From an uncultured Candidatus Saccharibacteria bacterium (lineage in GTDB: Bacteria > Patescibacteriota > Saccharimonadia > Saccharimonadales > UBA10212), in contig CAZUXR010000001.1 in the NCBI GenBank assembly GCA_964624785.1, positions 213-64,212 of the forward strand: a DNA stretch of 64,000 bases. The letters run 5' to 3'. Under the pieces are notes generated by a model, which was given only the letters and a program-made list of their open reading frames with translations, was not told where the DNA came from and ran no database searches. How positions within the stretch are numbered: position 1 is the stretch's first letter; every line of letters begins with the position of its first letter. Both the position numbers and the translations under genes were made by a program. Shown here piece after piece: positions 16,477 to 63,107 of this stretch.

Positions 16477-17319
16477 ATGAATCAAAAAGTTTTAATGTCT
16501 GGGGCGGAATATTTTACGGATGAATTCGCCATTAATCCTTACTACGGCTCCGGTCCTGCGGTAGATACCGCCGCAGCTGTCGCCGAACACAAGTCAATCC
16601 AAGCCGCACTTAAAAAAGCCGGGGTAGAAATAGTTAAGGTTGACGCCCCGCCTGGCTGCCAGGACGGCGTCTACACTGCCAACTGGGGACTTTGCCGCGG
16701 CAACAAGTGCGTGTTGTCTTCCCTGCCAAACAAACGCTCGAGCGAGGAACCTTATGCAGAAAAAGTACTCCATGAACTCGGCAAAGAAGTCACTAAACCA
16801 CCTATGCGTTTTAGTGGCCAGGGCGACGCCTTGCCCTGCGGCGATTACTTATTCGCCGGATCTACCTACCGCACCGACCCAGCAATTCACAAATTTTTAG
16901 CCGACACTCTTGGTTTTAAAGTAATTTCCTTGCAAACCGTTCCTAAATTAGACGATTATGGCCAACCACTGATCAACTCCGTTACTGGCTGGCCGGACAG
17001 TTTTTTCTACGACATCGACCTGGCGCTGTCCGTACTCACACCCAACCTTATAGCATGGTGCCCAAGCGCGTTTACGCCGCAAAGTCAGGACAAAATCAGC
17101 GCCTTGCCGATGGGCAAAATCGAAGTCAGCCACAAAGAAGCCGTCGAAAATTTTGCCTGCAACCTACTTAGCACCGGTCAAACTGTGGTAATGAGCAACA
17201 GCGCGCCGCAGTTTAAAGCAGCCATAGAAGCCCGCGGCCTAAAAACCATTACGCCGCGCATCACAGAACTCGGCAAAGGCGGCGGCTACATCCGCTGCAC
17301 CACTCTTACCTTGGAATAA
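16477..17319 (+). CDS. guanidino-group modifying enzyme superfamily protein (amidinotransferase / DDAH / arginine deiminase-related fold)
   Basis: 280 aa ending ...GKGGGYIRCTTLTLE (C-terminal catalytic Cys motif of the superfamily). The N-terminal VLMSGAEYF...INPY is typical of this family. Confidence 0.6.
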   Translation: MNQKVLMSGAEYFTDEFAINPYYGSGPAVDTAAAVAEHKSIQAALKKAGVEIVKVDAPPGCQDGVYTANWGLCRGNKCVLSSLPNKRSSEEPYAEKVLHELGKEVTKPPMRFSGQGDALPCGDYLFAGSTYRTDPAIHKFLADTLGFKVISLQTVPKLDDYGQPLINSVTGWPDSFFYDIDLALSVLTPNLIAWCPSAFTPQSQDKISALPMGKIEVSHKEAVENFACNLLSTGQTVVMSNSAPQFKAAIEARGLKTITPRITELGKGGGYIRCTTLTLE

Positions 17320-25286: not shown

Positions 25287-26216
25287 TCAAGTTTTCGACT
25301 TATCCTTAATCGAATATTTTTTAAAGAAACTAACTGGTCTTAGACCCTTTTTATGTTTTCGCAAGCCCTCTAGACCTAAATCCATTTCGATATTAATAAA
25401 TTCTACGCCGTTGCTTACTGCTACTTTAGCTAGTTGATTGAACGCGTAGTCGAAGATATTAGATAGCGAATAATCCACCTTCAAATGATTAGCGATATAG
25501 TAATTTTTATTAGCAGATTGATGATACAAAAGCACTGCCATTAACTTCCCGCCCACATAGACGCAGAGGTTCTTCATTCCTAGCATATCGTAATTATTTA
25601 ATGTTTTTTCTATAGCTAACTTTTCTTCGAACTCCGGGTCATTTTCTGTTTTGAATTTTTCGCTCCAGCCAGCTATGGCCGCAAAGACCTCTTGTCTTGT
25701 TCTCTCATCCGACAAATTAAGCTCTTTTGTTTGCAGTTCTCTACCACCCACTTCCCGTAAGAATCGACTAATCTGCTGCCTTAATCGAGCGTGGCTGGAG
25801 CCCTTCAATTCCGCAAGTTCATGACTATTTAATACATACTCGTTGTCATCTTGTTGCTCTTCGATTTCGAATTGGTCGGGGTATTTAATTGCACTTACCA
25901 CGAATTCTGCAATATGCATTAGTTTGGCTTGCTTGTTCTGAGCCTTTAGTTCTTTGAATATGATTTTTATAGATTCGTCGATCTTGTACGTGCCAACTAA
26001 TCCCAAGCCCGAATCCTGTATTTCTAAAGGCTGGTTATAGCTAATTACCATATTGCCATTCAGATCAGAAACAGTAAGTTTATCGTCTAAATTCCACCAT
26101 ATTTGTAGCGATGCAAAAGAGATATCGGACACTCCAGGGTAGCCTGCTACGAGTTGATCGTAGTTTTGTTTATCCTCCAGCGTAAGAGGTCTAAATCTTG
26201 GGAACTCCGGAAACAT
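25287..26216 (-). CDS. DUF2156 / MprF C-terminal (aminoacyl-phosphatidylglycerol synthase-like, GNAT-fold) domain protein
   Basis: FRPLTLEDKQNYDQL...SDISFASLQIWW is the typical N-terminus of stand-alone DUF2156 proteins. Its length of 309 aa fits the family. Confidence 0.6.
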   Translation of the reverse strand: MFPEFPRFRPLTLEDKQNYDQLVAGYPGVSDISFASLQIWWNLDDKLTVSDLNGNMVISYNQPLEIQDSGLGLVGTYKIDESIKIIFKELKAQNKQAKLMHIAEFVVSAIKYPDQFEIEEQQDDNEYVLNSHELAELKGSSHARLRQQISRFLREVGGRELQTKELNLSDERTRQEVFAAIAGWSEKFKTENDPEFEEKLAIEKTLNNYDMLGMKNLCVYVGGKLMAVLLYHQSANKNYYIANHLKVDYSLSNIFDYAFNQLAKVAVSNGVEFINIEMDLGLEGLRKHKKGLRPVSFFKKYSIKDKSKT

Positions 26217-27432: not shown

Positions 27433-28887
27433 ATGAAATTAGGGTGGAATAGCAACGTAAAAGCAACTGACAGCGAAGCAGAACTTGCTCACATCACGCA
27501 GGAAATCTATAAACGCAACCTAGAACTATCCGAGCGCAACAAAACTCTGCTTTTATTGCAACATATCGACGAGGCGGTTTTAAGTTCAACCGGTCAGCTT
27601 AGCGCCGTAATTCAAACAATCACCGACTTGCTAATTAGCGAGGGCGAGTTTGGATTTGCATCGATTTACCTGGCTGGCAAAAGTAGTAGCCTTGGCACGG
27701 CGCGCGGCTTTAGCACGAGCAAAACCATCCGCCCCGAACGTTTGGATTTAATAAAAAATCAGTTTGGCGCGCTCAACCTTACTCCGTCAAAAGACAACGA
27801 TCTATCCTATGCCATGCTAAGCGGAGATATTCAGGTTATTACTAGTTTCCGAGGGTTCAGGCCAGAGATTTCGGAAGAAGACGACGCTTCGCTAAAGGCC
27901 CTGCTAGAGGTCGACACGTTCTTTATATGCCCCCTTAAGTCCACCGGCCAAAGCTTGGGCGTAATGATTATCGGTCTGGTAAAAACCGCCGCATCTGTAA
28001 GCGAATACAAGATGAACCTAATTAAACGCCTTACAAACTCAATTAGCATAGCCGTACAAAACTACCTACTCTACGAAGAGCTAGAAGTCGCTAGCGATAA
28101 ACTTACCGAGCAGAACGCCACCCTGCAAAAGCTGAATCATTTAAAAGATGATTTTATGTCTATGGCAACGCACCAGCTTGGCACACCAATGGCTGTTGTG
28201 GATGGGTATATTTCTACAGTTATTCACCCAACGCACGGCGCTAATGTTAATAAGGATGAGCTACTGGGCAAAGCGCTTGCACGTCTGCGGCTTATGAAGC
28301 GTTTGGTCGAGGATTTTCTAAATGTGAGTCGAATGGAAACTGGACGATTTATAATTACCCGCACGCCAACCGATCTAAATAAAATGGTAGAGCAGGAAGT
28401 CGAACTTCTCGCGCAAAAAGCCAAAGAAGAAAATATAGAATTAAAATACAAAAAACCTGATCATCAGGTGCCGGTAATTTCTATCGATGAGCAAAAAACC
28501 CGCCAAGCAATCATGAATTTGATAGACAATGCCATCTACTATTCACCCGGAGCTACCGTAACAGTCAGCCTAAAGTCAGATGAACAAAATATCACTTTTC
28601 AGGTAGAAGACAGCGGAATTGGAATCGATGAGGAATCGCAAAAAAACTTATTCACCAAATATTACCGTGCAGACAACGCTAAAAAACAACGCCCCGACGG
28701 CAGCGGAATCGGCCTGTTTTTGGTCAAAAAAGTTATACAAGCCCAGGGCGGCCGATTGATTTTTAACAGCCAGCTGGGCGTAGGATCAACTTTTGGATTT
28801 ATCTTGCCAATAAAAAATCCCCCTGAACCAGAACAAGATATAGGACTGCCCAGCGAGCCAAAAATGCAACCCGAAACAGAAATTTAA
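27433..28887 (+). CDS. cytoplasmic sensor histidine kinase (GAF-like, HisKA, HATPase_c)
   Basis: H-box FMSMATHQLGTPM, N-box NLIDNAIYYS, G1 DSGIGI and G2 GSGIGLFLV. No TM segment. Confidence 0.85.
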   Translation: MKLGWNSNVKATDSEAELAHITQEIYKRNLELSERNKTLLLLQHIDEAVLSSTGQLSAVIQTITDLLISEGEFGFASIYLAGKSSSLGTARGFSTSKTIRPERLDLIKNQFGALNLTPSKDNDLSYAMLSGDIQVITSFRGFRPEISEEDDASLKALLEVDTFFICPLKSTGQSLGVMIIGLVKTAASVSEYKMNLIKRLTNSISIAVQNYLLYEELEVASDKLTEQNATLQKLNHLKDDFMSMATHQLGTPMAVVDGYISTVIHPTHGANVNKDELLGKALARLRLMKRLVEDFLNVSRMETGRFIITRTPTDLNKMVEQEVELLAQKAKEENIELKYKKPDHQVPVISIDEQKTRQAIMNLIDNAIYYSPGATVTVSLKSDEQNITFQVEDSGIGIDEESQKNLFTKYYRADNAKKQRPDGSGIGLFLVKKVIQAQGGRLIFNSQLGVGSTFGFILPIKNPPEPEQDIGLPSEPKMQPETEI

Positions 28888-30413
28888 CTGTGAGTTTTTA
28901 GTTCCGCGACGGCATCCTCGCCAAAGTGTTTTTTGAGTCTGGCTCGGATGGAGCCGGGGTGGCGACCAAATTCCTCGGTTAATTTTTTGACTGTAATCGG
29001 CTTACCTGCAGAAAAGAACCCTACCAACCTAGCATCGTCATCCGCAGACCACGGTTTATATGCATTTGGATATTTTGAACGCATTTTATCCAGCTTGTCA
29101 TTCCAGCTCCCACTAGATTTTATTATGATCGGCTCCTTAGAACGCTTACGTGCGCTTTCTCTCAAATGTTCGAACTTTTTAGCATCAATAACTGACTTTT
29201 TGCGCAATGTTTTATCTATCTCGAGAGCCTCGGGGCTTACCCGAAGCGCCATTTGGTTAATCCCTGCCAGGCTCAAAGTGTCCAAGCTGCGCACTCGGCT
29301 TAATGCCACATAGCCCATGCCTTCCACAAACGCCCGGCGTAAATCAATCCGTGCAGCGTCCAATGTCATTCCCTGACTTTTGTGCACCGTGATCGCCCAG
29401 GCTAGCCGCAGCGGAATTTGGCTCAAAGACGCACGTTTTTTGTCACCGTCGCGTAGCTCCCACGACTCCGGCGTAATTACTAATTTGCGGCCGCTTTTAA
29501 GTTCAACTTTTGGGTAGCCCGTTCCCTCTTCAAAACCCACAACCGTGCCGAGCGATCCGTTGACATACTTTTTTTCCGGATTATTTTTTATGCACATAAT
29601 CAACGCGCCTTTTTTTAATGTAAGAGTTTCTGCCGCCAAACAAGCTCGCTTGAGTGATTCCACATAGCTGGCTTTTCCGGTGGTACTCATGTGATATTGG
29701 CGCTCTTCGCTATCTAGTTTATGAAGCTGGCTAGAGTTTAGCTCGTCTACATCTACGTTTGTGGTGTGCAGCTGCGTAGCTTCGCCGACGTCCGCACTTT
29801 GGCGCGAAAGCAAAAGTTCCGCGTGGTGTCGGCGTATATCATTGCCCCTCAGCGCGTTCAAAATTTCTAAAAACTCATCGTCGTTTTGGCGATGCTGTTC
29901 GCTCAAATAACAAACTACCGGGTCTAGTTCTTCCCATACAACTGAATTCACCACAAATTCGCCAAGCTCCTCGCCGCGCTTGCTTACCGGGGGCAGCTGG
30001 AAAAAGTCGCCGCAAATCACCACCTGTAAACCGCCAAAAGGTTCGTTGACTTTACGCACGCTTCGCGCAATCTGATCTACCATATCCAGGCGAAAATGAT
30101 GCAGCATAGAAATCTCATCAATAATCAAAACATCTGTTTTAGCGATTGTGTCACGTCGGCCTTTAGTTAAATTTTCTATGATCCCAGGCGCCAGCTGGTT
30201 GTGGATTCCTATTCCGCTCCACGAATGTATGGTGTTGCCGTTTAGATGAGTCGCAGCCAATCCTGTCGTTGCCGTAACAGATACATGTTTGCCACTAGCC
30301 CGGGCGCGGCGAATAAAATCATTCAGAACAAAAGTCTTGCCAGAGCCTGCTGGCCCGGTCAGCAAAACGTTCTGCCCAGCTAACAGAATCTCTAGCGCAA
30401 GTTCTTGATCCAT
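28884..30413 (-). CDS. PIF1/RecD-family AAA_30 helicase with C-terminal helicase-associated HTH tail
   Basis: Walker A LLTGPAGSGKTF, Walker B VLIIDEISML, and the C-terminal motif ITVHKSQGMT. Confidence 0.85.
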   Translation of the reverse strand: MDQELALEILLAGQNVLLTGPAGSGKTFVLNDFIRRARASGKHVSVTATTGLAATHLNGNTIHSWSGIGIHNQLAPGIIENLTKGRRDTIAKTDVLIIDEISMLHHFRLDMVDQIARSVRKVNEPFGGLQVVICGDFFQLPPVSKRGEELGEFVVNSVVWEELDPVVCYLSEQHRQNDDEFLEILNALRGNDIRRHHAELLLSRQSADVGEATQLHTTNVDVDELNSSQLHKLDSEERQYHMSTTGKASYVESLKRACLAAETLTLKKGALIMCIKNNPEKKYVNGSLGTVVGFEEGTGYPKVELKSGRKLVITPESWELRDGDKKRASLSQIPLRLAWAITVHKSQGMTLDAARIDLRRAFVEGMGYVALSRVRSLDTLSLAGINQMALRVSPEALEIDKTLRKKSVIDAKKFEHLRESARKRSKEPIIIKSSGSWNDKLDKMRSKYPNAYKPWSADDDARLVGFFSAGKPITVKKLTEEFGRHPGSIRARLKKHFGEDAVAELKTHS

Positions 30414-30419
30414 CTATGA

Positions 30420-30580
30420 ATAGTTTATCGTTTTTGGTTTATGGTTGATAGTTTTTTTCAAAAATCCGAATCTCCCAGATTATTTCCGGGGTTTAATTCT
30501 GGAAATATGGGTTCTGGCTTCCTGCTTTTTTGCTCTGGACTACCGGCTCTCAGCTACAAGCTAATCCGAACGGTTTTTAT
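30420..30580. repeat. phase-locked heptanucleotide mosaic, copy H
   Basis: About 23 consecutive 7-mers in one register. The blocks are ATAGTTT ATCGTTT TTGGTTT ATGGTTG ATAGTTT, then AAATCCG AATCTCC, then TTCTGGA AATATGG GTTCTGG CTTCCTG, then GCTCTGG ACTACCG GCTCTCA GCTACAA GCTAATC. It overlaps the DUF167 stop. Confidence 0.7.
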
Positions 30581-30790
30581 TCGCGATTTATGGCCGCGTA
30601 CAATTTCGACATTCGATTTTGGCACTTCATAAAAATCCGCCAGCAACCCAATCACCGCCTTATTAGCTCGGCCATCAATCGCCGGTTCGCTGGTATAAAC
30701 CAAAAGCTCGCCAGTCAAACTCGGCTGCACCAAAGAACCTTTTTTGCTCGCTGGTTTAACCCGTACCGTAATCTCAAAAACCTTATCCAT
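30554..30790 (-). CDS. DUF167 (YggU-like) family protein
   Basis: MDKVFEITVRVKPASKKGSLV...AIDGRANKAVIGLLADFYEVPKSNVEIVRGHKSRIKTVRI is the YggU pattern. Start set at the ATG at 30790, not the longer ORF. Confidence 0.75.
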   Translation of the reverse strand: MDKVFEITVRVKPASKKGSLVQPSLTGELLVYTSEPAIDGRANKAVIGLLADFYEVPKSNVEIVRGHKSRIKTVRISL

Positions 30791-40183: not shown

Positions 40184-41294
40184 TATTCACTCCGATTACT
40201 TTCGCTTTAATTGTACCATCACTTAAATTTATGACCAGAAGGTCGTTAGCTTTGACCAGTTTAATACTCGCGATATGTTTGCCTTGGCTACGCACCAGTG
40301 CATAACCACGCCGCAAAACCGCCGATGGATCGTAAACACCGGCCAATCGATGTGCGGATTGTAAATATTCCCTGTTTTTATTGAACAAATTATTAGTGCT
40401 GGCAGCGATAGCTTCGGCCTGGGTTTTTAGCAAGTTAGTTTGTTCTTGAGCAATGCCCTCTATTCTACGAACAACACAGCTCAGCGTAGTTTGCAGCTGC
40501 GCAATTTTGTGAGCACGATCCGGAACCAGAATCATGGCAGCGTTTGTGGGCGTGCTAGCACGTTTGTCTGCAGCCATTTCTGCCAAGCTAATATCTACTT
40601 CGTGGCCGATAGCTACAAGTGTAGGAATCCGACTTGACGCCACCGCTCGAACTACGCGCTCATCGTTGAATGCCGCAAGATCTTGCTCACTGCCGCCGCC
40701 GCGCGTAATAACTAACACTTCCGGCGGGTCAGGCAGTTGATTAAAATGATTAATCGCGGCAATAATCTGGCCAGCAGCTTGTTCGCCCTGAACATACACA
40801 TCGCTTAACCACACATTCAATCCACCCCAGCGCTCGTTTAATATTTTTATAAAATCAGCAGCCGCAGCAGAACCAGCGGCAGTAATTAAGCCAATGTTTT
40901 CTGGCAAATCTGGCAAGGTACGTTTGCGAGAATCTTCAAACAATCCTTCCACGGTTAATTTACGCAGCAACAAATCTGCAGCTTTTTTGAGCGAACCCTC
41001 TCCCACCGGAGTTATTGACTGAAAACTAATGGTAAAACCAAACTTTGGGTGGTAGCGCGGACTACCAACAACCCGCACTGTTAGACCATCTTGCAACGGC
41101 CCGGGGAGTTGGAACACACTGCCAAAAAACGGCACGCTCGATATGTCGTCTTTTAGATCAAAGTACACCCAGCGATTTTTTGACACTCTAAATCCGCTTA
41201 ATTCCCCTTCTATAGTCACGATTGGGTAGGCAAATTCTAAGGTCTGATTTAAAACACCAACAAAATCTGTGGGCGTAAATACAATAGCATCCAT
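40170..41294 (-). CDS. xseA: exodeoxyribonuclease VII large subunit
   Basis: N-terminal OB fold (VTIEGELSGFRVSKNRWVYFDLKD) and the catalytic region ITRGGGSEQDL...AIGHEVD. Confidence 0.9.
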   Translation of the reverse strand: MDAIVFTPTDFVGVLNQTLEFAYPIVTIEGELSGFRVSKNRWVYFDLKDDISSVPFFGSVFQLPGPLQDGLTVRVVGSPRYHPKFGFTISFQSITPVGEGSLKKAADLLLRKLTVEGLFEDSRKRTLPDLPENIGLITAAGSAAAADFIKILNERWGGLNVWLSDVYVQGEQAAGQIIAAINHFNQLPDPPEVLVITRGGGSEQDLAAFNDERVVRAVASSRIPTLVAIGHEVDISLAEMAADKRASTPTNAAMILVPDRAHKIAQLQTTLSCVVRRIEGIAQEQTNLLKTQAEAIAASTNNLFNKNREYLQSAHRLAGVYDPSAVLRRGYALVRSQGKHIASIKLVKANDLLVINLSDGTIKAKVIGVNNAKS

Positions 41295-42349
41295 TACTTT
41301 TTAGGCGTGCCCAAACCGTTATGAACGGCCTTTTGATAGAAGTAATAACCAGGAATCAACTGGATGCTCATATTTAGAACTCTATACATGATCGTGACTG
41401 GGATGCTCAAAGATGCTGGAATTCCGCAGGCCACCAAAACAGCCGTCATTAAGCCTTCGTAAATACCTATTCCTGCTGGCAAAACAGAAATCAATCCGGC
41501 AAAGTTGGCGACCGCGTAAGCAATCACCACCGCGCCAAAATTAACAAAGTGTCCAAAGGCCACGTAGACAGTGTAAACCGCCGCCACTTCGGTAATATTG
41601 GCAATCGTAAGATACATAAACGGCTTTTTTAGCTGCGACCAGTCTTTCCGATAGATATTATAGTTTTCGTGCAGTTCTATAAAAGTCTTTTGTGCTCCTT
41701 CAATACTAATAGTTTCTGGATGTTTGGGACGGACAAGATGAACGATTCTGTTAATAAGTTTTGTCACAAAAGTTAAAAAGCTGTTAATACGGCTGCGGCT
41801 TTCTACAATATAAACGCCAACAAAAGTACCAACGATCACAAGGGTTACGATTGTGCTGGTAATGAGCATTATTAGATTGTTGACATGCCCGCCGATGGCT
41901 AAAACCAAAAGGCCAAAAATCAAAATTGGCTGAAAGCTAATGTATAGAATGAGCAACTTCATCACCTGCGCGAGCGTTGACTGGGCGGTTGTTATGCTCA
42001 TGGTTTTTGTACGGACATTAAAGTAGCTAATGCCGCTCACCCCACCGCTTGGCAAAATATGATTCACAAAGTTAAGCTCCAGCATCAACTTAAACATATC
42101 TTTGTATTCGACTTTTTTGCCTAGAGTCTTAAACTGGTTCTGGTGCAATTTGGCGTAAACATGATAGTTGAGCCACTCGATTGGGATCAAAAGAAAAAGT
42201 ACTAGTGAGTGTACTTTTCCAAAATCTCTGATCACCTGGTGGATTTGGCTGCGAAGAGTGTATATCAAAATAGCTAGTGCCAGGAATGACAGCACATTCA
42301 GAATCAACTTCCAGCGGGATTTCTTGAGTAGTACTTGTTCGGGCTCCAT
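41294..42349 (-). CDS. flippase-like / lysylphosphatidylglycerol synthase TM-region (UPF0104) family membrane protein
   Basis: About 8 TM with the N-terminal pattern KKSRWKLILNVLSFLALAILIY...; the family assignment is by overall pattern only. Confidence 0.65.
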   Translation of the reverse strand: MEPEQVLLKKSRWKLILNVLSFLALAILIYTLRSQIHQVIRDFGKVHSLVLFLLIPIEWLNYHVYAKLHQNQFKTLGKKVEYKDMFKLMLELNFVNHILPSGGVSGISYFNVRTKTMSITTAQSTLAQVMKLLILYISFQPILIFGLLVLAIGGHVNNLIMLITSTIVTLVIVGTFVGVYIVESRSRINSFLTFVTKLINRIVHLVRPKHPETISIEGAQKTFIELHENYNIYRKDWSQLKKPFMYLTIANITEVAAVYTVYVAFGHFVNFGAVVIAYAVANFAGLISVLPAGIGIYEGLMTAVLVACGIPASLSIPVTIMYRVLNMSIQLIPGYYFYQKAVHNGLGTPKK

Positions 42350-42398: not shown

Positions 42399-43655
42399 AT
42401 GGATAAAATTAAAACAGTTGCAATTCTTGGCCGGCAGAAGTCGCTGGGACTTGCCGAACTAGAAAGTCTTTATGGCGCGGAGCATGTGCGCTCCTTGGGC
42501 GACAACGCCGCTGTTTTAGATATTCCAGCCACGGAAATGGATTTTAGACGGCTTGGCGGCGCTGTAAAGCTTGCCCAGGTACTGGCCGAACTACCTACCA
42601 CCAACTGGCCGGACATGGTTAAGTTTTTGGGCGATAAAATTCCTGAGCATATTCAATACATGCCAGAAGGCACCTTTACACTTGGGGTAAGTGTTTATGG
42701 AATAGTGGTTAAGCTAGAAACCTTGAACAGAAATTTACTTGGAATCAAAAAAATTATTAAAGCTGCTGGCAAATCAACGCGAATTGTACCTAATAAATCG
42801 CTGGGACTTAACAGCGCCCAAGTCCTGCACAACAAACTCACAACCAAGGGTGGCTGGGAGCTAATATATATTCGCGATGGCGAGCACACCTTGCTGGCAC
42901 AAACTTTATTTATTCAAGATATCGAGGCCTACGCAGCGCGAGATCAAGCCCGTCCAAAACGCGATGCCCGAGTGGGAATGCTACCACCAAAGCTAGCGCA
43001 GATTATGGTCAACCTTGCCAGTGGCAAGGTCGGGTCACCAGTCACTAGTCACCAGTCGACAGTCACCGGACAAACGACTGGCGACCGACCACTAGTGACT
43101 AACAAGCCTTTGGTTTTGCTAGATCCATTTTGTGGCACCGGCGTAATCCTACAAGAAGCGCTATTAATGGGCTATACAGTCTATGGTACGGATGCGGAAC
43201 CGCGAATGATAGATTATACCAAAGCCAATTTAGACTGGCTTGATTTGCGTGGCGCCAGCAAAGAAGGGCGGATTGAACTAGAAGTAGGCGACGCTACAAA
43301 ACATCAATGGGCTCCACCCCCCAATCTTGTAGCCAGCGAAACATACCTAGGCCGGCCGTTCACTTCCCCGCCGCGACCCGAAATTTTAACCCAAAATATC
43401 AGCGACTGCAATGTAATAATTAAAAAGTTCTTGAGCAATATCCACTCGCAATTAGAAAGCGGGACAAGATTATGCCTGGCTGTGCCGGCTTGGCAAGTTC
43501 AGCCCGGGGTATTTAAGCACTTACCTCTTATTGACCAAGTTGGCAATCTGGGATATAATCGACTGAGCTTTGTTCATGTCAAAGATCAGGATTTGATCTA
43601 TTACAGACCAGACCAAATCGTTGGACGTGAACTAATCATATTAGCTAGAGTATAG
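42399..43655 (+). CDS. THUMP-like / UPF0020-type RNA (guanine-N2 or adenine-N6) methyltransferase
   Basis: Motif I LLDPFCGTGVIL preceded by PPKLAQIMVNLA. Start at the ATG at 42399; the upstream ORF extension overlaps the convergent 41294 gene. Confidence 0.7.
   Translation: MDKIKTVAILGRQKSLGLAELESLYGAEHVRSLGDNAAVLDIPATEMDFRRLGGAVKLAQVLAELPTTNWPDMVKFLGDKIPEHIQYMPEGTFTLGVSVYGIVVKLETLNRNLLGIKKIIKAAGKSTRIVPNKSLGLNSAQVLHNKLTTKGGWELIYIRDGEHTLLAQTLFIQDIEAYAARDQARPKRDARVGMLPPKLAQIMVNLASGKVGSPVTSHQSTVTGQTTGDRPLVTNKPLVLLDPFCGTGVILQEALLMGYTVYGTDAEPRMIDYTKANLDWLDLRGASKEGRIELEVGDATKHQWAPPPNLVASETYLGRPFTSPPRPEILTQNISDCNVIIKKFLSNIHSQLESGTRLCLAVPAWQVQPGVFKHLPLIDQVGNLGYNRLSFVHVKDQDLIYYRPDQIVGRELIILARV
43034..43103. 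repeat. in-frame heptanucleotide array inside the methyltransferase gene
   Basis: GTCACCA GTCACTA GTCACCA GTCGACA GTCACCG GACAAAC GACTGGC GACCGAC CACTAGT GACTAAC. It encodes SPVTSHQSTVTGQTTGDRPLVTN just before SAM motif I. Confidence 0.75.
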
Positions 43656-43944: not shown

Positions 43945-43950
43945 AAACTA

Positions 43951-44097
43951 GCTCTAAGCTAAGAGCCCAGAGCTTAGAGCGGGCTTCAAGGTTTATGGTT
44001 TGTAGTTTATGGTTTTTGGGCTAACGCCGAACGCTAGCTTTTTTCATTCTCTATTCTCAATTCTCTAATTCCTGCTCTTAAGCTAAGGACTCTTAGC
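43951..44097. repeat. phase-locked heptanucleotide mosaic, copy A
   Basis: 21 consecutive 7-mers in one register. The blocks are GCTCTAA GCTAAGA GCCCAGA GCTTAGA, then TTATGGT TTGTAGT TTATGGT TTTTGGG, then CTAACGC CGAACGC, then CTCTATT CTCAATT CTCTAAT, then CTTAAGC TAAGGAC TCTTAGC. The first block forms a 10-bp hairpin (43951-43980). Confidence 0.8.
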
Positions 44098-45707
44098 TAT
44101 AGTGCTGCTTTTATAAGGCCTAGGAACAACGGGTGGGCTCGGCCGGGTCGAGAGCGAAATTCCGGGTGAGCCTGAGTGGTTACAAAATACGGATGATCAA
44201 TGGCTTCTACCATTTCTACTAGCTGCCCGTCGGGCGATACGCCGGATTCTATAATTCCCCACGATTTATAATCCTTACGATAATCGTTATTGGCTTCGTA
44301 GCGGTGGCGATGACGCTCGATAATATTTTCGGCTCCGTAGAGTTTACGAGCCTTTGTTCCAGATTTGATTACGCAGGGATAATCGCCTAGGCGCATCGAC
44401 GCACCGGTGTTTTCTTTGCCTTTTTGATCTTCCATGGTGCTTACAACGGCGTGTTTAGGTTTAGGATCAAACTCTGTAGAATTAGCACCGGCTAAGCCCG
44501 CTCGGCGAGCAGCAGCAATGATCCCAACCTGCAGCCCCAGACAAATCCCTAGGTATGGCAATTTATTATCAAGAGCGAAGGCGGCGGCGGCAATTTTGCC
44601 CTCTACCCCGCGCCCACCAAATCCGCCAGGAACAATGATCCCGTCTAGGTCGGCCAAAACATTAACGGCTTTTTTGTCTTTTTCTAGGTCTTCGGCATTA
44701 ACCCATACAATATCTACATTGCATTCGTTAGCCCAGGCTGCGCTTCGCACCGCCTCGAATACAGACATATAGGTGTCTTGATTGTCGATATACTTAGCTA
44801 CCACGCCAATTCGTACGGTTTTGCGGTAATTAGCTAGTGCAGACTTAACCGTGCGCTCCCAGCTCTTCATATCGGGCTTATGAGCCTTTAGACCTAGGCG
44901 CTTAACGATAATATCGGCGATATTGGTGGACTCTAGAGTTAGCGGCACCTGATAGACAGTTTGAGCATTTGGCATCAGCACGATTGCTTCTTTGTCCACG
45001 CCACTAAATAGGCTTAGTTTGGGTATAACCGCTTTAGCTGGGGGCTTAGATTCGCTTCGGGCTGCCAGAACATCTGGCACAATGCCAAGTCCGCGAAGCT
45101 CACGGACAGAATTTTGCGCTGGCTTAGTTTTAAACTCACCACTGGCGCCCAGATATGGAATGTAAACAACGTGCACGAACATGCAGTTTTCTAGCCCAAC
45201 GCGCATGGACATTTCGCGGATGGCTTCTACAAAGCTCAATGATTCGTAATCGCCAACCGTGCCGCCAATTTCTGCGATGTGCACGTCAAAACCTTTGCCA
45301 GCACGCTCGATATACCCTTGGATGGCAGCAGTTAAGTGCGGAATAATTTGTACGTCTTCGCCTTTATATTTACCGGCGCGTTCGTCGCTGATAACTTTTT
45401 GCAGGACTTGCCCGCTCATCAAGCTGCTGCTTTGGGTCAGCTCCTCGTCTAAAAATCTTTCGTAGTGGCCAAGGTCCAAGTCTGTTTCTGCACCGTCTTT
45501 GGTTACAAAAACTTCGCCGTGTTCACGCGGATTTAACAGCCCAGCATCAACGTTTAGGTACGGGTCGCACTTTTGGATGTTAACGGATATTCCGCGGGCT
45601 TTTAAAATGGTGCCGATAGAAGCAGCCGTAATGCCTTTGCCAACGCCGGATAAAACCCCGCCGGTCACAAAAATATACTTAGTCTGCGGCTTAGTCCCTA
45701 GCGCCAT
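44097..45707 (-). CDS. pyrG: CTP synthase
   Basis: N-terminal KYIFVTGGVLSGVGKG, GATase domain GICLGLQ, and HPEF near the C-terminus. 536 aa. Confidence 0.95.
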   Translation of the reverse strand: MALGTKPQTKYIFVTGGVLSGVGKGITAASIGTILKARGISVNIQKCDPYLNVDAGLLNPREHGEVFVTKDGAETDLDLGHYERFLDEELTQSSSLMSGQVLQKVISDERAGKYKGEDVQIIPHLTAAIQGYIERAGKGFDVHIAEIGGTVGDYESLSFVEAIREMSMRVGLENCMFVHVVYIPYLGASGEFKTKPAQNSVRELRGLGIVPDVLAARSESKPPAKAVIPKLSLFSGVDKEAIVLMPNAQTVYQVPLTLESTNIADIIVKRLGLKAHKPDMKSWERTVKSALANYRKTVRIGVVAKYIDNQDTYMSVFEAVRSAAWANECNVDIVWVNAEDLEKDKKAVNVLADLDGIIVPGGFGGRGVEGKIAAAAFALDNKLPYLGICLGLQVGIIAAARRAGLAGANSTEFDPKPKHAVVSTMEDQKGKENTGASMRLGDYPCVIKSGTKARKLYGAENIIERHRHRYEANNDYRKDYKSWGIIESGVSPDGQLVEMVEAIDHPYFVTTQAHPEFRSRPGRAHPLFLGLIKAAL

Positions 45708-45869
45708 TTAGCCTCTGTTTTCTCCTACCCTGTCTCATAATTACTCCTGATATGCTACCACGGAAGTAGCGATGAGCCAATACCTTGAAGCCAAGACTCC
45801 TTGGTTGGTGGCTGAAAGGCCTGAAATTCATAATGCAGAGTTGAGAATGCGAAACTTCCGTCACCAACA

Positions 45870-45907
45870 AATCAAATAAAATAAGCGATCGCTTATTTTA
45901 TTTGATT
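45870..45907. repeat. 38-bp perfect palindrome with GCGATCGC core
   Basis: AATCAAATAAAATAAGCGATCGCTTATTTTATTTGATT lies between the S41 peptidase stop and the pyrG start. Confidence 0.9.
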
Positions 45908-50387: not shown

Positions 50388-50906
50388 TTATATTCTGGGT
50401 AGAGTAACGCCAGTTTTAAGAGACACTTCTTTTGCCCAACTGATCATAATGGCAAGTTTTTGCTCTAGCTCTAAAGATTCTTGAGCTTTAAGATTGGGAT
50501 GTCGTTTTTCTAGAGCAACTATCCGCATATAAATTTCTTTGATATCGCTTTCTACGCCCATCAGGCGATTGTCGATTTTTTCCATCCACTCGGCCATTTC
50601 CTGGTGCCCGCGCTCCAGGCTGGTCATTCGACCTTCCAGGCTTCCCATGCGCCCTTCTATATTTTCCATACGTCCATCAAGACTCTCAAAGCGCTGGTCA
50701 ATCTGCTCAAAACGCTGGTCAATCTGCTCAAAACGCTGGTCGACTTGCTCAAAACGTTTATCCATATTTATAGCCAAAGCACCGATCGATTCGGCAACAC
50801 TTGTAGCGAGATCACTGATCGACTCAGCAATATCGTTCACACTTGCCGTAAGAGTGCTTATCGACTTGGTAATGTCATCCTTATTTGTGCTTCCCGTAGT
50901 TGCCAT
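50388..50906 (-). CDS. coiled-coil protein with tandem 7-aa (21-nt) repeats
   Basis: FEQVDQR FEQIDQR FEQIDQR FESLDGR MENIEGR MGSLEGR MTSLERG. The underlying 21-nt tandem repeats span about 50620-50765. Confidence 0.6.
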   Translation of the reverse strand: MATTGSTNKDDITKSISTLTASVNDIAESISDLATSVAESIGALAINMDKRFEQVDQRFEQIDQRFEQIDQRFESLDGRMENIEGRMGSLEGRMTSLERGHQEMAEWMEKIDNRLMGVESDIKEIYMRIVALEKRHPNLKAQESLELEQKLAIMISWAKEVSLKTGVTLPRI

Positions 50907-51492: not shown

Positions 51493-52575
51493 TTAGATGT
51501 TGTGTTCGAGCCAGGATTCGATTAGGGGGTCTAGGTTGCCGTCTAGGACGGTTTGGGGGTCGGAAGTTTCGTAGCCGGTGCGCAGGTCTTTGACTTGTTT
51601 ATAGGGGTGTAAAACGTAGCTGCGGATCTGATTGCCCCACTCTGCCGATTGATTTGGGCCTTTAAGCTCACTCAACTTTTCGGCGTGCTGTTGCAGTTGC
51701 AAGGCCGCCAAGCGGGAGCGCAAAATCGTCATGGCTGTTTCTTTGTTTTGAACCTGAGAACGCTCGTTTTGAATACTTACCGTTAGGCCGGTTGGAACGT
51801 GCGTTATGCGCACAGCCGAGTCGGTGGTATTTACTGATTGGCCGCCGTGGCCGCCAGCACGATAAACGTCAACTTTAAGATCATTGTCATCAATTTCTAG
51901 CTCGCCAGGTTTGTCGATTTTTGGCATTACCTCTACCTTGGCAAAACTGGTTTGGCGCAGGTTGTCGGAATTATAAGGGCTCAACCGCACCAGGCGGTGC
52001 ACACCGTGCTCGCCCGCTAAACGGCCGTACAAAAAATTACCGCCGGAAAGTTCGAGTACAGCGCTTTTTATCCCGGCTTCTTCTCCAGAAGTTTGAGAAT
52101 CGGTTTGGACTTTTAGCCCGTGCTTTTCGGAGTAGCGAACATACATGCGCAGCAGCATAGCAGCCCAATCCTGAGCATCGGTGCCGCCCGCGCCGGCGTA
52201 AATTCCTAAAATTACATCGTGGTTGTCGTAGGGGCCACTAAAGCGAAGCTCGCGCTTAAGGGACGAGAATTGAGAATTGAGAATTGAGAATTTAGCTTCG
52301 AGTTCGGGCTCTAGGCTGGAATCATTTAGGCTAATTAATTCCGCTAGTTCGCGGGCGTCTTTTTGCAGGTTTTCCCAGGGTTGAATGCGAGAACTAAGCG
52401 CCGATTCTTGCTTACTTATATCCTGAGCCTTAGTGCTATCTTGCCAAAAATCCGGCTCCGCTATAGCAGTTCGCAAACCCGCTAATTCCGACTTTAGTTC
52501 ATCTAATTTTAGCTGAGCAACCGTCTGGGTAATGTCTTTATTAAGCTCACTAGCCCGCCTTTTAAGCTGTTCCAC
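51493..52575 (-). CDS. prfB: peptide chain release factor 2 (uninterrupted ORF, no programmed frameshift)
   Basis: GGQ motif (GGHGGQSVNTTDSAVRITH). The RF2-type recognition loop reads LVRLSPYNS (SPY at the SPF position). Confidence 0.9.
   Translation of the reverse strand: MEQLKRRASELNKDITQTVAQLKLDELKSELAGLRTAIAEPDFWQDSTKAQDISKQESALSSRIQPWENLQKDARELAELISLNDSSLEPELEAKFSILNSQFSSLKRELRFSGPYDNHDVILGIYAGAGGTDAQDWAAMLLRMYVRYSEKHGLKVQTDSQTSGEEAGIKSAVLELSGGNFLYGRLAGEHGVHRLVRLSPYNSDNLRQTSFAKVEVMPKIDKPGELEIDDNDLKVDVYRAGGHGGQSVNTTDSAVRITHVPTGLTVSIQNERSQVQNKETAMTILRSRLAALQLQQHAEKLSELKGPNQSAEWGNQIRSYVLHPYKQVKDLRTGYETSDPQTVLDGNLDPLIESWLEHNI
52265..52292. repeat. four perfect GAGAATT heptamers (AATTCTC on the coding strand) inside prfB
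   Basis: gagaatt occurs 4 times at 52265-52292 and encodes AKFSILNSQFS in RF2 domain 1. The same 7-mer occurs in the intergenic mosaics. Confidence 0.9.
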
Positions 52576-52663
52576 GCGGAACTCCTTCGGAGTTATTTAT
52601 CATTTGCCGCTGCGTATTTTTCATTAATTTCATCATCTATCATTTTACACTTGAACGATACTA

Positions 52664-52747
52664 GCGTACAGCGGCCAGGGGTTAGCGGACAGGAATTTCG
52701 GATCTGAACGCTAAACGCTATACGCAGTACGCTAGCCGGTTTATATA
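52664..52747. repeat. heptanucleotide mosaic, copy D (partial)
   Basis: GCGTACA GCGGCCA GGGGTTA GCGGACA ... GAACGCT AAACGCT ATACGCA GTACGCT AGCCGGT TTATATA. The AACGCTA block shares about 30 nt with copy B. Confidence 0.65.
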
Positions 52748-52831
52748 AACAGATACGAAGTTCTAAATCTCAAGGATTAACCCCCGAGCGCTAAAAAAAG
52801 CGCCCGGGGTAATCCCCACAGCAGCAAACCG

Positions 52832-53473
52832 CTACAGCAGCAAACCGGCGCGCTCAGCTCTTTTCTGGAGTCGGTTGAAGTGACCGAGCAGGATGCGCGC
52901 TTCTTCTGGGTCCACCATCGTCTGGTCGACGCTGTTGAGCCCGTCGAGTCCGCGACCCAGCTCAAGTAAACCTTTACGGATCAGCCCGAGGGTGATCTCT
53001 CTGCGGTGAGTATCGGCATACTCACGGTCGGAGCCTGACAGCATGCGGATGACCTCGTCGTGGATCTTGTTGGAGTCGGCATCGAAGTCGAGCAGGATGC
53101 GCGAGGCCACACCATCGTCCTCGCGCACCAGCCCGAGCAGGATGTGCTCGGTGCCGATGTAGTTGTGCCCCAGGGCCAGCGCCTCGCGAAACGCCAGCCC
53201 GAGGACCTTCTTGGCCCTCGGGGTGAACGGGATCTGCCAGAAGGTGACCTCCTCGCCGGAACCGACGGCTCGCACGATCTGGACGCGCACGCGCTCGACG
53301 GTGATGTCGAGGCTCTGAAGGACCCGCGCGGCCAGGCCTTCCTCCTCGCGGAGGAGCCCAAGCAGAATGTGCTCGGTGCCGATGTAGTTGTGCTTGAGGG
53401 TTCTGGCTTCTTCCTGCGCAAGCATGACCACTTGCCGCGCCCGTTCGGTATACCTTTCGAACAACTTTCTCAC
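52832..53473 (-). CDS. stand-alone Clp N-terminal (double Clp_N repeat) domain protein, ClpC1-NTD-like, in high-GC islet 6
   Basis: FERYTERARQVVMLAQEEARTLKHNYIGTEHILLGLL ... IPFTPRAKKVLGLAFREALALGHNYIGTEHILLGLV closely parallels the actinobacterial ClpC1 N-terminus. There is no AAA+ module. The likely true start is the TTG at 53464, preceded by AGGTGA, giving MFERY... nt 53101-53160 hand count is 41/60 G+C. Confidence 0.8.
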   Translation of the reverse strand: MRKLFERYTERARQVVMLAQEEARTLKHNYIGTEHILLGLLREEEGLAARVLQSLDITVERVRVQIVRAVGSGEEVTFWQIPFTPRAKKVLGLAFREALALGHNYIGTEHILLGLVREDDGVASRILLDFDADSNKIHDEVIRMLSGSDREYADTHRREITLGLIRKGLLELGRGLDGLNSVDQTMVDPEEARILLGHFNRLQKRAERAGLLL

Positions 53474-53645
53474 CTGTCTTTCGCTAGTCTTGCTTGTAGG
53501 GATTTTTGAGGATTTTAACTAAACGCAAAATACACGTTTGATCAAAAAGAACCTCATATCTATTTATAAAAAGTGCTAAAACCCCGATAAACCTCGAAGG
53601 CAATAGCTATATTATAAAACAGCCATCAGCAAAAAGCAAAGATCC

Positions 53646-53799
53646 GGCTTTGAGTTATGGTTTGTAGTTTATGGTTTATGGGCTAACCCTGAACACTAAA
53701 CGCTATCCGCTGTACGCTTTTCTTCATTCTCAATTCCCCATTCTGAATTCTAAATTCCTGGTATTTAAGCTCTGGGCTCTCAGCTCTTAGCTTCCCAGA
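53646..53799. repeat. phase-locked heptanucleotide mosaic, copy B
   Basis: 22 consecutive 7-mers in one register. The blocks are AGTTATG GTTTGTA GTTTATG GTTTATG, then GGCTAAC CCTGAAC ACTAAAC GCTATCC GCTGTAC GCTTTTC, then TTCATTC TCAATTC CCCATTC TGAATTC TAAATTC, then TTAAGCT CTGGGCT CTCAGCT CTTAGCT. It overlaps the last codons of the M16 gene. Confidence 0.8.
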
Positions 53800-55075
53800 G
53801 GGGTTGGATAGTTTCGTTCAGCTTATCCGTCAAAGCGCGAGTTTTACTATCACCCAGCAGCCCTAACCCGCCAATTCCATCACTAAACATGCGCTCCGAT
53901 GCCCGCACAATACGGCTTTTAGTTATGGCTTTAATGCGTTTTGGAATAGCGTCGTAATCGTCGATTACATTATCAAAGTAGTAGCGGCTAGAGTAGCCGG
54001 ACATAATTCCGCCAACAGTCTGGCCACTGCGCTGGTAGCGCCCTAATAGGTACTGCTTTGCGGCCTCTAAATCTTCTTCGCTGATTTCCCCTGCCCGCAC
54101 GCGGTTGACCTCACGGACGATGATTTCAAACAGCGGCAAAGCGTTTTTAGGAATCACCTGCGCGCCAAACCACCATACCGAACTGTCTTTTGTGGTGTCT
54201 AAATTAGAGCTCATGGAATAAACCAGTCCGCGCTCGCGGGCTTCGCCCAAAATACGTGAATTTAGAGTAGCAGTTAGCATAGTGTTGACCAGCCCAAGCG
54301 CGTCCCATTCCGAGTCCGAAAAGCGATGATTAGCAAACGCGTCAATATAAAAATGCGTAGTATTAACAGATGGGCGCGACACAAAAACGGGCTTTGGTGG
54401 AGCACTCGGAAGTTCTGATGGTAACTCAATTCGCTCGCGGCCTTTTGGTAGTCCGATATTTTCTAGCAGTTGTTTGATTTGGCTGGTGCGCCCCCGCAAA
54501 TTACCGGCAATTATAAACCGCATATTGCGGGTAGTGTGGGTGTTTTTGTAATGCTCTACAACATCTTTTAGCTTAACGTTTTTCATTAGTTTTAGGCATT
54601 CGCGGTCGGTCATGGCCAGCAGCCCATAAGCCTGACGAGTCACAGCATGCAAGTGCAAAAAGTGGTTGTTTGCCCGAGCCGCACGCTCGTCTTTCACGTT
54701 ACCAAATTCGGCCTTAAATTCGTCGCGCAAAAAAAGCGGCTTGCTAATTGCGGTAAGCATTAGCTCTAGCACGCGTTGCCACTCAAAGTCGGCGGCTTCG
54801 GCTTCGTAGGTTACATGATATGTGCTGGTGTGTGCATTAGAATACGCACCGTTTTTTTCGAACTCTGCCTGAAACGCCCGCGCTTTTGGATATTGCTTAT
54901 TAGCGCCAAGCAGTACATGTTCCATTAAATGCGGAGCTTCCCATTTGTCTTTTGGTACCAGGTATTCGCCCGCTCTAAAGTTAAATTCATAATCCATAAC
55001 AGTGGCGCCAGGCACATCGATCAAAATACCTTTTGCGCCATTTTTTAGTTCAATCTCGGTTGCGGTGTGCTTCAT
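53780..55075 (-). CDS. M16-family (pitrilysin/insulinase-like) zinc peptidase
   Basis: Inverted zinc motif HLMEH (HxxEH) near the N-terminus. 431 aa with two-lobed M16 architecture. Confidence 0.85.
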   Translation of the reverse strand: MKHTATEIELKNGAKGILIDVPGATVMDYEFNFRAGEYLVPKDKWEAPHLMEHVLLGANKQYPKARAFQAEFEKNGAYSNAHTSTYHVTYEAEAADFEWQRVLELMLTAISKPLFLRDEFKAEFGNVKDERAARANNHFLHLHAVTRQAYGLLAMTDRECLKLMKNVKLKDVVEHYKNTHTTRNMRFIIAGNLRGRTSQIKQLLENIGLPKGRERIELPSELPSAPPKPVFVSRPSVNTTHFYIDAFANHRFSDSEWDALGLVNTMLTATLNSRILGEARERGLVYSMSSNLDTTKDSSVWWFGAQVIPKNALPLFEIIVREVNRVRAGEISEEDLEAAKQYLLGRYQRSGQTVGGIMSGYSSRYYFDNVIDDYDAIPKRIKAITKSRIVRASERMFSDGIGGLGLLGDSKTRALTDKLNETIQPLWEAKS

Positions 55076-55131
55076 GGAATTAGAATCTCGAATTTGGATT
55101 ATGGAATTTGGAATTAAGATTTATCGAATTT
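55076..55131. repeat. heptanucleotide array, copy C (GAATNNN block)
   Basis: GGAATTA GAATCTC GAATTTG GATTATG GAATTTG GAATTAA GATTTAT CGAATTT fills the M16-secA intergenic gap. It is the reverse-complement type of the NNNATTC block of copy B. Confidence 0.75.
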
Positions 55132-62429: not shown

Positions 62430-63107
62430 ATGGCTACCCTTAATGATAAAAAGCCTGCCGACCGGTTACGGTCGCTATTCAGAAGTGGTCGCGCGCAAAC
62501 TTGCCCAAAAAATCAGATAATACAATACCGTGGCGATGACCTTAATAACATTTACCTTATAAAAAAGGGTTTCGTCAAAGCTTACACCATATTAGATAGC
62601 GGCGACACCAGAACGTTGTTTATTCTGGGACCGAATGACATATTCCCTATCGCTTATTCTTTGGATACAAATTGGAAGAATTACAAAGTTCAATATTTTT
62701 ACCAAGCAATGACTGCTGTAGAAATGAGCATGATAGATAGCCTGCGGTTAAAAAAATCTATAGACTCCGAGATTGCTTTCACACACGCCTACCTGGGGTA
62801 TATGGCAAAAATGAACAGAGTTATAATGGCGCAGCTAGAAATTATGAAGAACAAAAAAGCGGTCGATAAAATGCTTTTACTGCTTCCTTATTTAATTAAA
62901 AAGATTGGCCGACAAATAAAGTCCAACACCTATCAATTTAAAGTTAAGTTGTCGCATCAAGAAATGGCAGATTTATCGGGGGTAACCCGAGAAACAACAA
63001 CCACCCTAATTAACCAGCTCGAGAAAAAGGGCAAAATACAACAAAAGAAGGGCAAGTGGATTATCAAGACAACCGAAGAAGAAGATAATCAAATAGATGA
63101 GTTTTAA
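62430..63107 (+). CDS. Crp/Fnr-family transcriptional regulator (cNMP-binding domain plus C-terminal HTH)
   Basis: A beta-roll region (IIQYRGDDLNNIYLIKKGFVKAY) and the HTH segment SHQEMADLSGVTRETTTTLINQLEKKG. Confidence 0.85.
   Translation: MATLNDKKPADRLRSLFRSGRAQTCPKNQIIQYRGDDLNNIYLIKKGFVKAYTILDSGDTRTLFILGPNDIFPIAYSLDTNWKNYKVQYFYQAMTAVEMSMIDSLRLKKSIDSEIAFTHAYLGYMAKMNRVIMAQLEIMKNKKAVDKMLLLLPYLIKKIGRQIKSNTYQFKVKLSHQEMADLSGVTRETTTTLINQLEKKGKIQQKKGKWIIKTTEEEDNQIDEF

Follow-up and report, generated by a model that had tools for sequence, protein, structure and literature searches.

A mosaic of heptanucleotide arrays between a PIF1-family helicase gene and a DUF167 gene in a Saccharibacteria genome

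Element H is a mosaic of 7-nt direct repeats at positions 30420-30580 of a 64,000-nt stretch of DNA (contig CAZUXR010000001.1 of assembly GCA_964624785.1, henceforth "the window") from an uncultured Candidatus Saccharibacteria bacterium. H is a diverged paralogue of two better-preserved mosaics in the same window, copies A and B, and is the most eroded of the three. Its repeat class is already known from prokaryotes, lacks a functional explanation and is newly seen here in a genome of the Candidate Phyla Radiation (CPR). The interpretation towards which we lean is that H is an eroded paralogue of an intergenic element of 150-190 bp made of four or five short tandem arrays of differing heptamers, that it originated by slippage and that it persists as a tolerated spacer. 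A first-pass annotation of the same DNA had pointed to H; its observation was real, if partly overstated.

The window is gene-dense, with 46% G+C, and most of its genes lie on the minus strand. Nearly all the named homologues of its CTP synthase come from Candidatus Saccharimonadales or Saccharibacteria, and the nearest non-self relatives reach only 77-80% protein identity. H fills the whole 140-nt gap between the stop codon of the DUF167 gene and the start of the helicase gene, both of which are on the minus strand.

Periodicity of H and its paralogues

The sequence of H, its coordinates and its writing in heptamers from position 30420 were as the first-pass annotation had described them. Self-matching at lag 7 across 30420-30580 was 0.403, compared with 0.278 ± 0.035 in 5000 dinucleotide shuffles. 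Such a value was equalled in 3 of the 5000 shuffles, and in 26 of 2000 if the highest value over lags 2-29 was used. Self-matches at lags 14 and 21 were likewise above those of the shuffles, and by its lag-7 value H ranked fifth among 140-nt windows of the 64 kb. Autocorrelation thus bore out the period-7 claim, and Fourier analysis did not: coherent power at period 7 over the whole span of H was not significant (289 of 2000 shuffles), Fourier analysis being a poor detector for mosaics built from differing units. Tandem Repeats Finder detected only positions 30423-30454 within H, with a score (36) below its default threshold of 50, and left the remainder unreported. H can be divided as follows:

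30420-30454, plus strand: block 1, five GTTTAT-type heptamers (ATAGTTT ATCGTTT TTGGTTT ATGGTTG ATAGTTT).

30455-30503, no strand assigned: middle segment, aperiodic (lag-7 z = -0.16), with 0-3 matches per unit.

30497-30531, plus strand: weak TTCTGG/TTCCTG-type block, the counterpart of the ATTCTCx block of A and B, with a register slip of 1 nt.

30532-30566, plus strand: GCTxxxx block (GCTCTGG ACTACCG GCTCTCA GCTACAA GCTAATC).

Block 1 is the strongest part of H, with 5-6 lag-7 matches out of 7 per unit and a periodicity equalled in 3 of 3000 shuffles. It contains GTTTNTNGTTTATGGTT, the hallmark of the family, and on the gene strand it reads as (xAUAAAC)-like units that end 6 nt before the helicase AUG. 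The middle segment sits where A and B carry an AACGCT-type block; it aligns weakly to both and is presumably an eroded block of that type. Periodicity is again present at 30504-30573 (lag-7 0.46, equalled in 0 of 3000 shuffles), where about 8 units weaker than those of block 1 are found. Within this right part, the GCTxxxx block is homologous to the AGCTCTx block of A and B, aligns collinearly with both (TTCCTGCT-TTTTTGCTCTGGACT...CTCAGCT), and overlaps the stop and the last codons of the DUF167 gene.

Altogether, H holds about 5 strong units, which are arranged head to tail in block 1, and some 8-10 weak ones. The proposal of about 23 successive heptamers in a single register fails, as the middle third is aperiodic, the Fourier signal is absent and the TTCTGG copies lie 15 nt apart, not 14. 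As to the blocks that had been listed, the five ATNGTTT units and the periodicity of the GCTNNNN region hold up; NTTCTGG is weak and slips out of register, and AATNNCN gave no signal.

The two paralogues are located as follows:

53621-53802, plus strand: copy A, the best preserved, [AGCxxxx]3 [TATGGTT]4 [xAACGCT]5 [ATTCTCx]6 [AGCTCTx]4.

43945-44099, plus strand: copy B, which fills exactly the gap between the stop codons of the convergent genes rpmA (L27) and pyrG.

Copy A has the highest lag-7 value of the window (0.61), its Fourier power at period 7 was reached by 10 of 2000 shuffles, and its right end overlaps the stop codon of an M16 peptidase gene. Over 113 aligned nt, A and B show 87% identity; they have a 22-mer in common and also agree in their non-periodic block junctions. 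H can be aligned collinearly with each of them, non-periodic junctions (GGGCTAAC, TTCATTCTC and AATTCCTG...AAGCT) included. The z scores of local alignments against shuffles were about 6 for H and A, 4.5 for A and H without block 1, and 25 for A and B. Hence, the shared architecture that had been noticed on first inspection is confirmed. On the plus strand the common order is [AGC-type] [GTTTATG]4-5 [xAACGCT]3-5 [ATTCTCx]4-6 [AGCTCTx]4-5. Of these blocks, H has no counterpart of the first and no longer shows the third. The rightmost block of all three copies covers the stop codon of a gene on the minus strand (M16 peptidase in A, pyrG in B, DUF167 in H).

With a profile of A, B and H, no full copies other than these three, each on the plus strand, were retrieved from the window; being built from its own members, the profile shows that there is no further full copy and is not an independent test of membership. 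The hallmark GTTTNTNGTTTATGGTT has 10 matches in the window at no more than 2 mismatches, against 0.24 expected, and 7 of the 10 fall inside the three copies.

The copies differ in their potential for secondary structure. The ends of B are inverted repeats of 20-30 nt made of AGCT-containing units, whose 20-nt arms are 85% complementary, and the corresponding RNA forms a long hairpin (fold z = -3.9). No inverted repeat was found in 30380-30600 around H or at the ends of A, and the gene-strand RNA of H (z = -0.9) and A (z = +0.5) folds no better than shuffles, which rules out a structured RNA for these two copies. A window-wide search of Rfam 15 at the gathering score and a tRNA scan gave no match.

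Flanking genes, syntenic spacers and arrays elsewhere

The features that border H are the following:

28884-30413, minus strand: PIF1-family helicase open reading frame (ORF), with its ATG at 30413-30411 (Pfam PIF1, 1e-36).

30554-30790, minus strand: DUF167 (YggU-family) gene, with its stop codon at 30554-30556 (Pfam DUF167, 2e-21).

30422-30427, minus strand: TAAACT, a candidate -10 box that is formed by the final block 1 unit and is separated from the helicase ATG by 8 nt.

The helicase start is supported by homologues that open with MDQ...ALE at the same position. Two plus-strand ORFs that run across H (63 and 88 aa) were set aside as they are antisense to DUF167.

The last block of H had been thought to supply both the stop and the final codons of the DUF167 gene. 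The position of the stop and the terminal residues ...TVRISL are right; the origin of the final codons is not. The protein ends in ...KTVRISL, and KTVRI aligns with GRHKQIKI of Escherichia coli YggU (1n91) and with SRQKTIRI of MTH637 (1jrm), while the Pfam DUF167 alignment extends to the last position of the profile. Because of these matches the conserved C-terminal strand is considered native, and the array is ruled out as its creator. Only "SL" and the stop codon could derive from the array.

At the opposite end of H, the helicase AUG is preceded by 45 nt with 58% A, 4% G, stop codons in all three frames and no Shine-Dalgarno (SD) motif. The helicase initiation region (these 45 nt plus the first 15 nt of the gene) folds with only -1.4 kcal/mol and is the second least structured among 59 genes. 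The least structured is that of the other array-led gene, M16 (-0.7 kcal/mol), whose upstream region is also 4% G; the median is -7.4 kcal/mol. In relatives, the orthologous helicase ATG follows TATAAT or TATACT at a distance of 7-8 nt. A scan of 30300-30700 detected no sigma-70-type promoter (-35 and -10 boxes with a 16-18 nt spacer), TAAACT agreeing with the -10 consensus at only 4 of 6 positions, and no intrinsic terminator (GC-rich hairpin followed by a U tract).

SD motifs are found in about one-quarter to one-third of the genes in related Saccharimonadales loci, and are similarly sparse in the window. A near-consensus TATAAT/TACAAT box was seen to end 6-11 nt before the start of many genes, both in the window and in contigs of relatives (L001, L003, L149 and L151); examples from the window are 57866-59164(-), 50388-50906(-), 41294-42349(-), 25287-26216(-), 62430-63107(+) and 16477-17319(+). 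This suggests that leaderless transcripts are common in the Saccharimonadales clade.

A Saccharimonadales genome (GCA_035480715.1, here L151) shares synteny with the window over a region that runs from SecA past rpmA, and permits a comparison of three spacers:(i). Between SecA and M16, L151 has 5 nt with AGGAGG just upstream, and the window has 71 nt with an array.

(ii). Between M16 and RF2, L151 has 1 nt (L151 3215-3235); the window has copy A, an extra Clp_N gene and further arrays (52576-53802).

(iii). The genes pyrG and rpmA overlap by 14 nt in L151 and are separated by 152 nt in the window, which correspond to copy B.

As the syntenic spacers of L151 are tiny or overlapping, the arrays of the window are derived, lineage-specific spacer expansions and not conserved regulatory DNA. 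In another relative, L149, the pyrG-rpmA spacer is 181 nt long and aperiodic. The relatives contain a few small arrays of unrelated unit types. One of them is an [xTTAACC/xTTTACC]4 array that extends from the stop codon of an S41 peptidase gene in L149 (positions 1629-1656; pyrG 77% identical), and low-level heptamer arrays are therefore present elsewhere in Saccharimonadales. The relatives identified through the helicase (L001-L003) show no synteny on the DUF167 side and are thus unusable as a source of orthologous spacers for H.

Under stringent conditions, 10 lag-7 blocks were detected in the window, compared with 1.4 in shuffles; 7 of the 10 fall in intergenic DNA, which makes up 12% of the window, and 2 lie inside genes. 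Arrays in the window are thus more numerous than composition predicts, in agreement with the lag-7 value of H itself. Those outside the three copies include:

55076-55131, plus strand: about 8 xGAATTx heptamers that fill the SecA-M16 spacer and touch the M16 ATG (Tandem Repeats Finder and unit map).

52650-52732, plus strand: [CGxxCAG]4 and [xACGCTA]4, in the spacer between prfB and the Clp_N-domain gene.

52265-52292, plus strand: a perfect (GAGAATT)4 inside prfB (RF2; ORF 51493-52575, minus strand), with a 100% match in Tandem Repeats Finder.

43034-43067, plus strand: about 5 units of the (GTCACCA) type within a methyltransferase ORF that ends at 43655 (Tandem Repeats Finder).

The prfB array is the reverse complement of the unit of block 4 in A and B, and matches the profile weakly. 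It encodes FSILNSQFS and represents no net insertion relative to solved RF2 structures; three added GAGAATT units amount to 21 nt and are in frame. The methyltransferase array is translated as ...SPVTSHQSTVTG..., apparently a low-complexity linker. The Clp_N-domain gene (52832-53473), located between M16 and RF2, has heptamer-array DNA on both flanks (copy A on one side, 52650-52732 on the other).

Two further repeats were observed in the window. The spacer upstream of pyrG contains a near-perfect AT-rich palindrome of about 20+20 nt at 45868-45907 (CAAATCAAATAAAATAAGCGA/TCGCTTATTTTATTTGATT), which may be the terminator of the preceding gene. The ORF at 50388-50906 carries 21-nt tandem repeats at 50685-50756 (3.4 copies, 92% match) and 50614-50657 (2.1 copies), which implies a 7-residue repeat in the protein.

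Arrays related to block 1 are also found in other phyla. A scan with TATNGTTTNTNGTTTATGGTT, using one genome per species, yielded at least 120 loci; a rough estimate of the number expected by chance is 17. The matches listed, to which the counts and patterns given next are confined, belong overwhelmingly to Bacteroidota (Chitinophagaceae, Flavobacterium and Bacteroidales), with arrays of up to 31 units. With arrays read in the GTTTATG orientation, 58 of 102 left edges are no more than 15 nt away from a gene boundary (37 stops of plus-strand genes and 21 starts of minus-strand genes), against only 11 of 97 right edges; ORF calling for these edges was crude. A (GGTTTAT)n array is very often followed, 30-150 nt on, by its reverse complement (ATAAACC-type). 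The pairs are always arranged with GTTT on the left and AAAC on the right (L013, L030, L046, L053, L120 and about 40 others), and the left array begins no more than a few nt from a stop or start codon.

Some loci are multi-block mosaics, as seen in two Chitinophagaceae metagenome-assembled genomes (L021, 5440-5700, minus strand; L103, 6240-6420, plus strand) and in two unclassified metagenome contigs (L139, 380-540, minus strand; L146); an example is [ATGAGCx]8 [GTTTATx]4 [CTGxAAC]6 [AAATCTC]6. The succession of units in these four loci resembles that of A and B, a likeness that may be a selection effect of the profile search. A gapped pattern of two blocks retrieved 25 loci, and true adjacent arrays were present only in L126, L139 and L146. 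As most of the 25 are chance matches, a "grammar" of units common to several phyla is not established. Matches to the Chitinophagaceae mosaics obtained with nhmmer are no more than suggestive, as E-values are unreliable for repetitive sequence.

Origin and possible roles of H

In the scenario that we favor, the arrays would have been made by slipped-strand expansion in steps of 7 nt, which we consider the most likely generator. Slippage is pointed to because heptamer arrays also occur within two coding regions; it appears to be active in this Saccharimonadales genome, and to be purged from most coding sequence. The composite may then have been copied to at least three gene junctions by recombination or mobilisation, and the outcome would be that spacers of few or no bases, such as those of the syntenic relative, became expanded. 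H itself would be tolerated and possibly mildly useful: block 1 may keep the helicase start A-rich, open and SD-independent, and its last unit may provide a weak TAAACT box for a leaderless transcript at the place where relatives have a -10 box of the TATAAT type. The rest of H is probably a spacer without sequence-specific function.

Several observations weigh against this interpretation:(i). Slippage alone does not explain why block order and junctions are shared at three loci, and a dispersal step is needed.

(ii). The three copies have one orientation and each begins at a stop codon, a pattern that may stem from function or from choice of target.

(iii). Variation within blocks is mildly clustered by column (combined p = 0.02), as in arrays of binding sites and not as in random decay; the test is marginal, and the blocks were picked by eye.

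(iv). GTTTAxG, ATTCTCx and AGC-type units recur side by side in unrelated genomes.

(v). The GTTTAT block of A and B adjoins no start codon.

(vi). The low structure of both array-led starts is suggestive of selection. It is no proof, since direct repetition of a unit poor in G yields unstructured sequence by construction.

Some of these observations would be accommodated if H, A and B were modular cis-regulatory platforms, with blocks acting as arrays of sites for an oligomerising protein that binds single-stranded RNA or DNA with a footprint of about 7 nt and thereby controls translation or stability of the flanking genes. Putative binders are a cold-shock-domain protein, ribosomal protein S1 or a HutP-like factor. 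Cold-shock domains make contact with 6-7 nt, and HutP recognises UAG triplets spaced 7 nt apart. The units have cores of three or four invariant bases with the rest variable (ATTC+NNN, AGC+NNNN, GTTT+NNN), in line with the column clustering; the orientation to the gene strand is constant in 3 of 3 copies; and the Bacteroidota arrays listed often abut starts or stops on one side and seldom on the other. S1, Csp and CsrA have also been proposed for TAACTGA repeats (PMC4679880). We nevertheless regard such a platform as unlikely. The orthologous spacers are absent in the syntenic relative, and therefore nothing essential or ancient is encoded there; one-third of H has lost its periodicity; arrays are found inside coding regions too; no candidate binding protein was identified; and the column test is weak, made on blocks chosen by eye.

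Another explanation is that the three copies are a non-autonomous mobile element that inserts at gene 3' ends, akin to miniature inverted-repeat transposable elements (MITEs) or to repetitive extragenic palindromes and bacterial interspersed mosaic elements (REP/BIME), the heptamer arrays being secondary. It would account for three paralogous copies with common non-periodic sequences at unrelated junctions, for the stop codon at the beginning of every copy, for the empty spacers of the relative and for the inverted termini and long hairpin of B. In addition, arrays flank the Clp_N gene, which is missing from the M16-RF2 junction of L151. The reasons why we hold it improbable are the following. 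H and A have neither inverted termini nor a significant fold, and the palindromic hairpin unit of 20-40 nt that typifies REP/BIME is absent from both; only B folds. The "terminal repeats" of B may be a by-product of having a self-complementary AGCT-based block at both ends. Target-site duplication was not seen at B by eye, in a comparison where the L151 spacers are empty and divergence is too great to place insertion points. Only three copies exist in 64 kb, a scan of metagenome contigs with the A/B-specific junction gave no match, and no transposase turned up beside the copies, in analyses that included no search aimed at transposases.

A broader hypothesis, which we deem quite unlikely, is that heptamer mosaics are modular intergenic elements spanning several phyla (Saccharibacteria, Bacteroidota, cyanobacteria and Beggiatoaceae), selected in SD-poor lineages as entry or loading sites at starts and as hairpins at stops, and spreading as composites. 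If this were true, G-poor arrays at starts would be structure-free ribosome entry sites or loading platforms for proteins that cover 7 nt, such as S1 and cold-shock proteins, self-complementary arrays at stops would act as 3' hairpins, and composites spreading among junctions would mark spacer expansion and gene insertion in compact CPR genomes.

It is very unlikely that H is simply the promoter region of the helicase, with AT-rich units that provide a -10-like box and upstream A/T tracts and a periodicity that is incidental or tunes promoter strength. TAAACT does lie 8 nt before the ATG, at the position of the TATAAT/TATACT boxes of relatives, and a leaderless-type TATAAT-N6-11-ATG arrangement is common in the clade. 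However, the consensus scan found no site, there is no -35 match at 16-18 nt, the box departs from the consensus at two of its six positions, and a promoter would explain the last unit only, not the 140-nt element nor A and B. Finally, chance patterns in AT-rich intergenic DNA are refuted as an explanation: the whole-span Fourier result, the sub-threshold Tandem Repeats Finder score and the aperiodic middle third would fit, but autocorrelation at lags 7, 14 and 21, the separate significance of two sub-regions, the collinear homology to A and B and the excess of hallmark matches do not.

If slippage and tolerance are the correct explanation, H adds an example from the CPR and Saccharibacteria to the puzzle of why 7-nt tandem repeats are favored in prokaryotic intergenic DNA. 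It also reveals that spacers of 0-5 nt were enlarged to 70-180 nt by heptamer arrays in a streamlined genome. The question raised is whether such arrays are neutral products of slippage or devices for SD-independent initiation. It could become testable, given that array-led genes have the two least structured starts of 59, that boundary polarity is fixed (more than 100 Bacteroidota loci among the matches listed) and that SD motifs are little used.

Comparison with known repeat classes

Heptamers are reported to be the commonest unit of long simple-sequence repeats (SSRs) in prokaryotes, and polymerase slippage has been proposed as their origin (Mrazek 2007, as summarized in PMC4679880). TAACTGA repeats are located immediately 5' of SD-less start codons (MacGregor 2015, PMC4679880), and S1, Csp and CsrA have been suggested as their binders in the same paper. 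Mixed assemblages of heptamers fill intergenic regions of Bacteroidetes and Microcystis and are missing from close relatives (PMC4679880; also PMC4692102). A full-text literature search retrieved no paper describing such repeats in Saccharibacteria.

As far as the class of cyanobacterial short tandemly repeated repetitive sequences (STRRs) and long SSRs is outlined in PMC4679880, the elements described here share with it the head-to-tail 7-nt units, the mostly intergenic location, the use of several units per genome, the sporadic phylogeny, the lack of an agreed function and the proposal of slippage as generator. Unlike members of that class, arrays in the window have only 3-8 units and are degenerate, a constant order links different units into a composite with at least three paralogous copies, and the host is a small-genome member of the Saccharibacteria (CPR). 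The classical units STRR1-3, TAACTGA and GGGGATT have no tandem occurrence in the window; TAACTGA is found there four times singly and in no tandem pair.

With the TAACTGA repeats of Beggiatoaceae, Cyanobacteria and Bacteroidetes (PMC4679880), H has in common an array a few nt upstream of an SD-less start. Block 1 lies in the sense orientation near such a start, a likeness that is a positional analogy only. Differences are found in the unit sequences, in the fact that only 1 of the 3 family copies abuts a start, and in the other end of every copy, which lies on a stop codon. The mixed assemblages (PMC4679880) are similar in that they fill intergenic regions, occur in near-identical form at more than one locus (as in Elizabethkingia) and correspond to short, repeat-free spacers in close relatives.

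REP/BIME and MITEs resemble the family of H in being short, dispersed, non-coding and mosaic, in their location after stop codons or between convergent genes, and in the inverted, hairpin-forming ends of B. They differ from it in that H and A contain neither a palindrome nor inverted repeats at their ends, that duplication of a target was not observed, and that the interior consists of direct 7-nt repeats. As for the (GGTTTAT)n arrays of Bacteroidota, H is without the paired reverse-complement array, and arrays among the matches listed are far longer there than its five-unit block 1. Nonetheless, the unit of block 1 and its polarity relative to the gene boundary are identical to those of the Bacteroidota arrays, and some of the loci in that phylum are likewise mosaics.

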